Source of the DNA: a virus
Taxonomy: Duplodnaviria > Heunggongvirae > Uroviricota > Caudoviricetes
IMG/VR virus record: IMGVR_UViG_2713896833_000003
Span: 1-14,385 of that record
DNA length: 14,385 nucleotides
Reading direction: 5' to 3' (one strand)
Shown here: piece after piece, positions 4,817 to 5,958 of the stretch
Numbering within the stretch: position 1 is the stretch's first letter
How the letters are laid out: the number at the start of each line of letters is the position of its first letter
Position numbers and translations under genes: made by a program
The notes under the pieces: generated by a model
The model's input: only the letters and a program-made list of their open reading frames with translations
Database searches by the model: none
Told to the model about the DNA's origin: nothing

Positions 4817-5356
4817 ATGGATATTACTGAGTTTCCTTCTGGAGTAATTGAACACCTTGGCTGGTATGTATACCGATTGATTGATCCGAGGGACGGAAGC
4901 ACCTTCTATGTAGGGAAAGGCAAAGGTAACCGCGTATTTGCCCATATGCGCGGTGAAGTGGCAGCGACTGATGATGACGAGTTACTGAGCAACAAGCTAA
5001 AGCAAATTAGAGAAATAAGGTTAGCAGGACTTGAAGTTATCCATGTCATCCATCGACACGGAATGACTGATGAAAAGACGGCGTACGAAGTTGAAGCAGC
5101 ACTTATTGATGCCTACCCTGGGTTAACGAATATCATGAATGGTGCTGGCAGCAATGAATTCGGCGCCGCGCATGTCAAAGAGTTGATAGCAACATATCAG
5201 CCCGAAACCATAACATTTCATCATAAAGCATTAATGATATCCGTTAACAGAAGTGCAAAGGATTCAGAGCTTTATGATGCGGTTCGATTTAGCTGGCGCA
5301 TTAATGTCTCTCGCGCCAGCCAAGCAGAAATCATTCTTGCTACTGTACCCGGGTAG
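4817..5356 (+). CDS. GIY-YIG nuclease-domain protein (orphan), function unknown
   Basis: 179-aa ORF; N-terminal [32 protein letters not shown] fits the GIY...YIG...R...H pattern, with downstream E and N; no obvious SD; 3' end overlaps the convergent RusA-like ORF by 85 bp. Confidence 0.5.
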
Positions 5357-5958
5357 AACTGAACGGGTTTATGCATCCAGACATCGGTATAAGGCACGGA
5401 GACTGATACGGAGAAATAGCGCCGGAGAGATTTAAACTCATCCAGCAATTCAGAATATTTGCGATTCAGTGAATCATAAGATGCCACCAGCTGGTGGTGT
5501 GGTTGTTCCAGTTGTTGTTCCTGAAACTTCTCTGCCGCTATACGGGAAAATCTCAGTGCCTTACGGGCTGCACTTTCCGGTAAGGCATCCGCCAGATCAT
5601 TACGAATCAGCCACCAGCACAGTTCCGGCATTGTCACAACGTGACTGTCATCAAAACCGAGATCCCGACGCACAACAGACAACACCCAGCGGGCACAGTT
5701 ATCCGTTGCCATTGATTCCAGCCGTTCCGTGAACTGATCGCGCAGCTGGTTATCCGGAGGAAACAACACGATCTCCACTGAAGCAGGTGCCGACGTTGGT
5801 TTTGGCAGACGACGTAACTGCTCAACTATTGCTGCACACGCCGCGCTCTGGAATTTGCGCCCCGCCGCGCTTATCAGGCTCTTACCTGCAAACGCCCCTT
5901 TGTTGGGGTGTCGCCAGTACGTGTTCACGCTGGGCGGGAAAGGCAAGATCAGCTTCAT
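5272..5958 (-). CDS. RusA-family Holliday-junction resolvase-like protein with about 100-aa C-terminal extension
   Basis: N-terminal [13 protein letters not shown]...G...S..AG matches the RusA signature (LPWPPSNNRYYRH), plus PPDNQLRD and FDDSHVV resembling the RusA acidic motifs; start overlaps the upstream stop as ATGA. Confidence 0.5.

Follow-up and report, generated by a model that had tools for sequence, protein, structure and literature searches.

A RusA-like open reading frame in an ssrA-integrated prophage remnant is most probably a chimeric scar of prophage decay

Introduction

Does an open reading frame (ORF) that begins as a phage RusA resolvase gene, continues far beyond the length of this protein and ends inside a convergent neighbor encode an enlarged resolvase, or is it a by-product of deletions that have reduced a prophage? 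This question is raised by a 228-codon, ATG-started frame on the minus strand (5958 to 5272 in the ORF list) of the window, i.e., of the whole 14,385-nt stretch of DNA that was analyzed and that represents the complete draft contig LJGI01000073.1 of assembly GCA_001282375.1. The window contains a lambdoid prophage remnant at ssrA, the surviving parts of which are the early region, from int to rusA, and the far-end cargo (EcoRII-like R-M and GIY-YIG genes), while nearly all DNA between rusA and this cargo is gone.

The remnant carries genes for an integrase (13162-14325), YfdQ/R/S-like proteins, a cI-like repressor (8966-9658), cro-like and CII/CP76-like proteins, an O-like replication protein (6772-7713), a PerC-like protein (6281-6775) and a protein consisting of a LexA DNA-binding domain (LexA-DBD) only, whose gene ends at 5955, as well as a Dcm-type methyltransferase (2977-4452) and an EcoRII-type endonuclease (1728-2942). 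Of ssrA, only the last 27 nt are present (1473-1499), and a tRNA scan of the window yielded no tRNA or tmRNA gene.

Results

Extent and overall composition of the ORF

The ORF list confirmed both the 228-aa ORF and its 85-bp overlap (5272-5356) with a convergent plus-strand GIY-YIG ORF of 179 aa (4817..5356), as given in a preliminary description of this locus, and the peptide strings quoted there are found in the ORF at residues 146-181. The canonical RusA length of about 120 aa, also given there, agrees with the 120 aa of PDB 1Q8R (129-131 aa for the phage allele considered here). Two other elements of that description had to be revised: the RusA homology, described as a signature spanning some 125 residues, ends at N70 according to PHROG, DNA identity and Pfam comparisons, and the C-terminal extension, described as about 100 residues long, comprises ~158 residues with three different origins.

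Three unrelated PHROG families tile the ORF, namely RusA (residues 1-74), HNH/DUF968 (69-146) and DNA methyltransferase (134-205), and in BLASTN comparisons its pieces are 94-99.5% identical to intact genes elsewhere. These remnants are collinear and on the same strand relative to the intact lambdoid gene order (rusA, DUF968, methyltransferase), which in a fuller form reads RusA > KilA-N > DUF968 > Q > ... > MTase > lysis. Two loci illustrate this order: L011 (strain A32), with PerC - LexA-DBD - RusA (129 aa) - KilA-N - DUF968 (329 aa) - Q, and L003 (strain 120899), with DUF968 - Q - two small genes - methyltransferase (350 aa) - holin/lysozyme/spanin - terminase.

The rusA remnant

The first piece is a rusA 5' remnant (5749..5958, minus strand; codons 1-70), assigned by nucleotide identity to intact rusA and by a PHROG 34 match on residues 1-74 (E 4.5e-24). 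Over window positions 5736/5749-5958 it shares 94-97% nucleotide identity with the 5' part of intact rusA (96-97% for L011, L004 and phage mEp460), and ORF residues 1-70 share 97-100% protein identity with phage RusA clusters such as P0009; the DNA identity to intact rusA stops inside the heptamer GATAACC at window positions 5748-5754. The genomic position typical of the RusA family, with the replication, PerC and LexA-DBD genes upstream, is retained; the slot of the ORF after the latter two and its start codon context are those of the phage RusA alleles. Indeed, the native rusA start is kept, overlapping the stop of the upstream LexA-DBD gene (ATGA), and the SD-like GAGAGGGG ahead of it is intact.

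At the protein level, a Pfam profile search run at E<=10 still detected no PF05866 match on the ORF, whereas P0009 (131 aa), a full-length allele used as a control, scored 53.7 bits (cutoff 22.8). Similarly, intact RusA aligned with PDB 1Q8R at E 2.6e-17 over residues 3-120, vs. E 0.011 for the ORF. In the 1Q8R alignment, residues D70, D72, K76 and D91 of E. coli RusA, reportedly found essential for catalysis by Bolt, Sharples and Lloyd in 1999, correspond to D74, D76, K80 and D95 of the phage allele. Because the ORF diverges from RusA after N70, the last three of these (D76, K80 and D95) are missing from it; its D74 is a chance mimic supplied by the DUF968 sequence QLRD. Relative to the RusA alleles used for comparison (129-131 aa, from mEp460/SfII/SfIV-like and Stx prophages), the ORF lacks residues 71-131, i.e., the catalytic half (DLDN...K...DD) and the C-terminal strands. 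As judged from its translation, the ORF product is not a RusA-family member as a protein, the relationship being that of a gene fragment only.

The DUF968 and methyltransferase remnants

The second piece is an internal DUF968 remnant (5551..5747, minus strand; ORF residues 71-136), supported by DNA identity, PF06147 and PHROG 96 ("HNH endonuclease", DUF968 family; match on residues 69-146). With a length of 206 nt (window 5549-5754), it is 98-99.5% identical at the DNA level to an internal part of the DUF968 gene (best in L003 and L004) and corresponds to about codons 121-189 of the 329-aa DUF968 protein. The PF06147 match is marginal and partial (residues 108-147 vs. profile positions 2-42 of 171, 30.5 bits), and HNHc_6 (PF16784) has no match on the ORF, from which the C-terminal HNH part is absent; in a full-length control, P0045, both PF06147 (positions 2-171) and HNHc_6 were matched. 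Thus, in comparison with the lambdoid nin-region DUF968/Orf-like-HNH proteins (PF06147 + PF16784; e.g., WP_001360050, 329 aa), to which ORF residues 71-136 are ~99% DNA-identical, neither the N-terminal third nor the C-terminal HNH nuclease part is present, and the predicted product is not a DUF968-family member as a protein.

The third piece is an internal methyltransferase remnant (5348..5548, minus strand; ORF residues 137-204) of ~213 nt, identified by DNA identity and by a PHROG 6952 match on residues 134-205. Window positions 5346-5561 are 98.6% identical to genes annotated as 'DNA-methyltransferase' in >1000 complete E. coli genomes. The parent gene encodes an N6_N4-type methyltransferase (WP_000799653-like, 350 aa) with a normal place between Q and the lysis genes, and the remnant corresponds to about codons 211-281 of its 350 codons; the apparently "helical" QEQQLEQ...SLRRY stretch of the ORF is derived from it. 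Both the DPPY and AdoMet motifs are absent, the retained 68 aa being located between the N-terminal DPPY and the C-terminal FxGxG regions of the related protein P0101, which matches PF01555, vs. no match of this Pfam family on the ORF. The encoded polypeptide would accordingly fall outside the N6_N4 methyltransferase family: as a protein, it is not a member by its deduced sequence.

The read-through tail and the truncated GIY-YIG gene

The remaining residues 205-228 and the stop codon (5272..5345, minus strand) represent an antisense read-through tail, translated from the reverse strand of the GIY-YIG coding sequence, and no family match to this tail was found in Pfam or PHROG. The convergent gene itself (4817..5356, plus strand) is a 3'-truncated LEM-3-like GIY-YIG gene (PF22945, E 8.8e-15), a full-length version of which is present in L006. 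It retains codons 1-177 of 257 as native sequence ending at 5347 (PHROG 5356 covered at positions 1-177 of 255), and its last codons (PG*) are three foreign codons from the antisense methyltransferase remnant. The coding sequence is 100% identical to L006 up to window position 5347, and the GIY-YIG/R-M cargo to the left of this position is 99.9-100% identical to its matches elsewhere.

In intact prophages, this end is organized as ssrA - EcoRII-like R - M - GIY-YIG (257 aa) - tfa - tail fibre - lom - J (L006 and L007). A GIY-YIG truncation identical to that of the window is an annotated pseudogene in strain MSB1_9I, where the same endpoint is joined to gpJ and where the cargo differs from that of the window by one base between 1523 and 5347. 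A protein search with GIY-YIG residues 98-177, addressing codon 177 as a possible recurrent breakpoint, returned 8 candidates only, and a cluster listing of truncated GIY-YIG proteins contained no further junction variants. A scan between the two convergent ORFs revealed no convincing terminator signal.

Three deletion junctions within 410 nt

The pieces are connected by three joints, which are known from the contig of one draft assembly and are packed within 410 nt, with microhomologies of 7, 2 and 2 nt for J1, J2 and J3, respectively. J1 (GGTTATC, 5748..5754), defined by a three-way alignment of the window with both parents, is a 7-nt microhomology (GATAACC on the coding strand) common to rusA nt 205-211 and DUF968 codons ~120-122 (CCG GAT AAC CGG in parental rusA and TGC GAT AAC CAG in parental DUF968), and the 7-mer lies within a 16/19 imperfect match of the two parents. 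Relative to intact L011, the deletion amounts to 1369 nt and has eliminated the rusA 3' half, the KilA-N gene and the DUF968 5' third. J2 (AA, 5549..5550), defined by alignment with both parents, is a 2-nt overlap adjoining an 8-nt patch, CAGTGCCT, which occurs in both parents 3 nt out of register; the corresponding deletion of ~2.6 kb relative to L003 has removed the DUF968 3' part, the Q antiterminator, two small genes and the methyltransferase 5' part.

J3 (TA, 5346..5347), the phage/cargo junction, was defined by alignment and by the intact end layout in L006/L007, and connects methyltransferase codon ~281 with GIY-YIG codon 177. The same far-end layout implies that the DNA lost at J3 extended from the lysis genes through the tail-fibre assembly gene, tens of kb in total. 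Both convergent 3' ends, and hence the overlap of the two ORFs, are thus by-products of J3. The reading frame is open through both internal joints, and the next stop is encountered 24 codons into the GIY-YIG antisense strand.

Recurrence of the chimera

Among 5.8 billion protein clusters, the ORF product is a singleton (1 member on 1 contig, the window), and no other protein in this collection covers >69% of the ORF. Homologs sharing the extension, for which the preliminary description had suggested looking, were likewise encountered in none of these clusters. In 5,426 complete E. coli genomes, no locus covers >=80% of window positions 4700-6400 or of the ORF and no match crosses J1, J2 or J3, the best matches to window positions 5330-5570 ending at J3 and J2. 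None of the three junctions was found alone in the genome and protein collections searched.

A recurrent breakpoint in rusA

The protein searches also yielded many singleton or low-count fusions sharing the same RusA N-terminus, P0002, P0003 and P0004 being further RusA(1-69/70)::DUF968 chimeras. The positions of these fusions were mapped as the last RusA-matching residue of each retrieved protein, with identical tails collapsed, and are therefore protein-level positions for most events. At least 36 distinct rusA fusion junctions fall within codons 67-74, including 23 after D69 and 8 after N70, with zero junctions at codons 66 and 68. Another ~8 distinct junctions are located at codons 106-111, vs. 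~6 in the 31 codons 75-105 (simple frameshifts excluded), and ~14 at codons 44-61, a class under-sampled by the search design. A word-indexed search with ranked output provided the sample, and its second list favors short proteins; nevertheless, the sharpness of the peak (0 at codons 66/68, 23 at 69 and 8 at 70) is hard to attribute to ascertainment. The fusion partners include KilA-N, four different DUF968 positions, Q, lysozyme and an Rz-like protein, as well as portal, prohead protease, capsid, Mu-type baseplate, tail sheath and tail J proteins.

At the DNA level, all eight independent junctions compared (the window, complete genomes AH65, AR434 and S115, and contigs for P0121, P0138, P0151 and P0131) retain ...CCTCCGGATA or ...GGATAAC before diverging, and a microhomology of 2-7 nt is present in six of them, those with a parental partner sequence at hand. 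The two pile-ups coincide with the two arms of a perfect 10-bp inverted repeat of rusA, GGATAACCGG (nt 204-213, codons 68-71) and CCGGTTATCC (nt 319-328, codons 107-110), in which nt 208 pairs with nt 324, and the commonest breakpoints are after nt 208 and after nt 324/325. This repeat extends to an imperfect ~17-bp stem in both MFE and centroid ssDNA folds, the folding energy of rusA nt 175-356 as ssDNA being not unusual (z = -1.2). The arms also harbor all four CCGG sites of rusA, and a Chi site is found at codons 101-104, 9-24 nt before the second hot spot. In a spread sample of complete genomes, queried with intact rusA and its flanks, ~90% of the copies are intact, and a single hot-spot truncation was observed (H209, query end 365, about rusA nt 215). 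Nothing relevant on deletion hot spots in rusA or on the 10-mer motif was retrieved from the literature.

We consider it an even chance that a fragile site exists in rusA of this prophage family and that the window ORF is one of its products. If so, a sequence- or structure-specific break or a replication stall at the rusA motif could serve as a recurrent start of prophage inactivation in E. coli, the candidate causes being hairpin processing, a site-specific or homing-type nuclease, or CCGG-directed cleavage. Several other conceivable causes were also considered. GATC/MutH or BamHI-type cleavage fits the first hot spot (GATC at nt 213-216) and misfits the second, where the nearest GATC is 20 nt off; for EcoRII from the adjacent cargo, the hot-spot sites contain no CCWGG. 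Both short remnants in the window carry a coding-strand Chi, at distances from the joints (55 and 137 nt) too loose for a RecBCD/Chi explanation, and DNA invertase quasi-sites, DnaA boxes and the gyrase consensus showed partial motif resemblance only.

Discussion

Combining the family assignments with nucleotide-level comparisons of intact prophage loci points, with a high degree of confidence, to the ORF being a non-functional chimeric pseudo-ORF, a scar of prophage decay rather than a RusA variant. It belongs to the class of prophage deletion scars, which is of an already known, ordinary kind: its pieces are near-identical to intact genes, they are collinear with the intact order, and the joints between them are microhomologies. 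Moreover, many analogous RusA(1-69/70)::X fusions occur in other decayed prophages, complete genomes included. The closest parallels are the rusA'::'kilA-N pseudogenes of E. coli AH65, AR434 and S115, which belong to the same prophage family as the window and share with it the rusA breakpoint (after ...CCTCCGGATA/AC) and the microhomology-type joints, although each of them reflects one deletion, as opposed to three joints in 410 nt and an open frame in the window.

In the proposed scenario, loss of intervening DNA at short microhomologies would have created an in-frame rusA/DUF968/methyltransferase chimera in a prophage that would have kept its immunity and early region together with the cargo, while the middle was lost. 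The stop 24 codons into the GIY-YIG antisense strand would then set both the length of 228 codons and the 85-bp convergent overlap. Two features count against this interpretation, namely the retention of the frame across two joints, for which the chance is ~1 in 9 if random, and the retention of native translation signals. Derepression of the early operon could conceivably lead to synthesis of a 25-kDa junk polypeptide, since neither the native rusA start nor its coupling to the upstream gene has been damaged. Such a chimeric product would presumably be unable to resolve Holliday junctions, and its expression and some accidental activity may nevertheless occur.

The preliminary description had offered a choice between a genuine fused domain and a read-through across a scar left by deletion or recombination where phage and cargo meet. 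The former is refuted, as the product is a singleton with at most 69% coverage elsewhere and the added parts are catalytically dead internal fragments. The latter was correct in kind and incomplete: a read-through at the phage/cargo junction, across J3, accounts for the last 24 codons and not for the rest of the extension. In place of the single scar implied, there are three junctions, and most of the extension consists of in-frame DUF968 and methyltransferase remnants.

A further question within the deletion-scar interpretation is whether the three joints originate from one complex microhomology-mediated event rather than from three unrelated deletions, which we consider to be about evenly balanced. 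Known routes to complex microhomology rearrangements include serial template switching (MMBIR/FoSTeS) and, in E. coli, RecBCD-dependent alternative end joining. The window resembles MMBIR/FoSTeS-type events in its microhomologies of 2-7 nt and in the short collinear segments (206 and ~213 nt) placed between large jumps, the mechanism in this case being deduced from the scar alone. What speaks for a single event, by either serial template switching or multi-fragment end joining, is the small size of the remnants: separate deletions of 1.4 kb, 2.6 kb and tens of kb would be unlikely to spare, by coincidence, two stretches of only ~200 nt between them; this is a parsimony argument only, and the missing intermediates would also fit lineage-specific serial deletions.

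Three independent, sequential simple deletions are a serious alternative, whose chance falls just short of even. Simple microhomology deletions are abundant, as exemplified by L001, L004, L008, L009 and L010 with one each, and strain MSB1_9I, in which the truncated GIY-YIG gene is joined to gpJ, could represent an intermediate stage. On the other hand, a route via MSB1_9I requires that a second deletion begin precisely where the first had been joined, the collections contain no genome or protein with J1, J2 or J3 alone, and the survival of two ~200-nt remnants between large deletions would be improbable with independent random breakpoints.

That the assembly fused reads of different prophage regions into a chimera appears very improbable. 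Such an artefact would be in line with the observation of the ORF in a single draft assembly and with three junctions within 410 nt, each unique to the window contig. However, the joint overlaps of 2-7 nt are far under any assembler k-mer, deletions would leave pieces in collinear order and on one strand, as observed, the contig is recorded for 2 samples, and like junctions at the same rusA site are present in the complete genomes AH65, AR434 and S115. The notion of a genuine RusA-family resolvase with a functional C-terminal fused domain (a RusA-DUF968-type multidomain protein), for which one could invoke the uninterrupted frame, the retained native rusA start and the CDD listing of DUF968 fused to RusA, among other recombinases (PMC4118853), is hardly credible for a product in which RusA ends at residue 70 with D76, K80 and D95 absent, the HNH region is missing from the DUF968 piece and the methyltransferase motifs from the methyltransferase piece, the 24 C-terminal residues come from the antisense strand of another gene and the architecture as a whole has no homolog among 5.8 billion clusters.

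Overall, the scar interpretation turns this ORF into a record of how a lambdoid prophage integrated at ssrA shrank to its immunity/early region and R-M/GIY-YIG cargo. While the ORF itself is ordinary, the recurrent rusA breakpoint is the sole element that might deserve follow-up; if a specific break-inducing process indeed acts at rusA, it would provide a testable handle on prophage domestication. Scars of this type may contaminate the RusA-DUF968 fusion entries of domain databases (PMC4118853). For annotation purposes, the ORF should be flagged as a pseudogene/fusion artefact and not as a "RusA family endonuclease" or a "DUF968 protein"; fragment fusions of related prophages are annotated by NCBI as partial genes, "partial in the middle of a contig."

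Recurrent Breakpoints in rusA and the DUF968 Gene

Deletion junctions in rusA recur at two short stretches of the gene. At least 36 distinct fusions arising from independent junctions fall at codons 67-74, and about eight more at codons 106-111. The rusA junction of the chimeric ORF in the window (5748-5754) corresponds to rusA nt 205-211, the gene being intact in two comparison loci from other genomes, L004 (4202-4597) and that of strain A32 (L011, 2890-3279). A 10-bp inverted repeat (GGATAACCGG / CCGGTTATCC) has one arm at each of these clusters, and the four CCGG sites present in rusA are all located in its arms; the eight junctions examined at the DNA level all stop at ...CCGGATA(AC).

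Chimeras that join RusA residues 1-69/70 to DUF968 are present in other genomes as well (proteins P0002, P0003, P0004, and P0131), each with a different joining position in DUF968. CDD is said, in a statement from PMC4118853, to list DUF968 fused to RusA; such database RusA-DUF968 architectures may represent deletion scars instead of true fusions. The DUF968 gene itself (L011 1077-2066) has recurrent breakpoints at codons ~13, ~100, and ~113-117, with differing partners. Among the retrieved proteins, the foreign sequence gives way to DUF968 directly before MGIVLF in P0002 and P0047, before (G)CQWPHSDW in P0084 and P0088, and before LCWHCDN in P0094 and P0099, the joint in L004 lying 3 nt off the last of these. 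The entry point into DUF968 in the window is located 14-17 nt downstream of the LCWHCDN cluster.

Chi Octamers in the Chimeric ORF

The window contains five Chi octamers (GCTGGTGG), at 5484-5497, 5611-5618, 8410-8417, and 12436-12443, vs. 0.39 expected from shuffled sequences. Three of the five reside in the chimeric ORF (687 nt), two of them back to back as a palindromic pair (CCACCAGCTGGTGG), and both of its short remnants (DUF968 and methyltransferase) carry Chi on the coding strand. This hints at an involvement of RecBCD, but the spacing between Chi and joint (55 and 137 nt) is loose.

The GIY-YIG Breakpoint and the ssrA-Proximal Cargo

The LEM-3-like GIY-YIG gene ends at the identical last base (...GCTACTGTA) before the break in the window (5347) and in strain MSB1_9I (L002, ~5648), the break site corresponding to position 6898 of an intact locus (L006), and the native sequence past this site is AGGGGGATCG. 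The partner at the break is a methyltransferase remnant in the window vs. a gpJ remnant in MSB1_9I. This common endpoint reflects either a nested deletion that began at a pre-existing joint or another breakpoint that recurs, as in rusA.

The GIY-YIG gene belongs to the tail-end cargo of the prophage (1473-5347), together with an EcoRII-type endonuclease (~402-404 aa, domains EcoRII-N and EcoRII-C) and a Dcm-type C5 methyltransferase with a DNA_meth_N domain. The cargo directly adjoins the final 27 nt of ssrA (1473-1499), and in both intact loci examined (L006 and L007) the entire block is flanked by ssrA and tail-fibre genes. Among 5,426 complete E. coli genomes, 867 carry its GIY-YIG end (4450-5347).

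Leftward of the att core derived from ssrA, positions 1-1472 consist of sequence other than ssrA; the match of 1263-1472 to MSB1_9I is broken by clusters of mismatches, and 1-1262 has no match in the compared loci (L001, L002, L006, and L007). The left flank thus suggests a second, different element integrated in tandem at ssrA.

Repeats in the O-Like Replication Gene

BLAST self-hits at 7341-7404 reveal short tandem or inverted repeats within the O-like gene (6772-7713), spanning 7284-7451 and coding for peptide repeats of the DPSKSDASKS type; they probably constitute the iteron or origin region of this replication gene.
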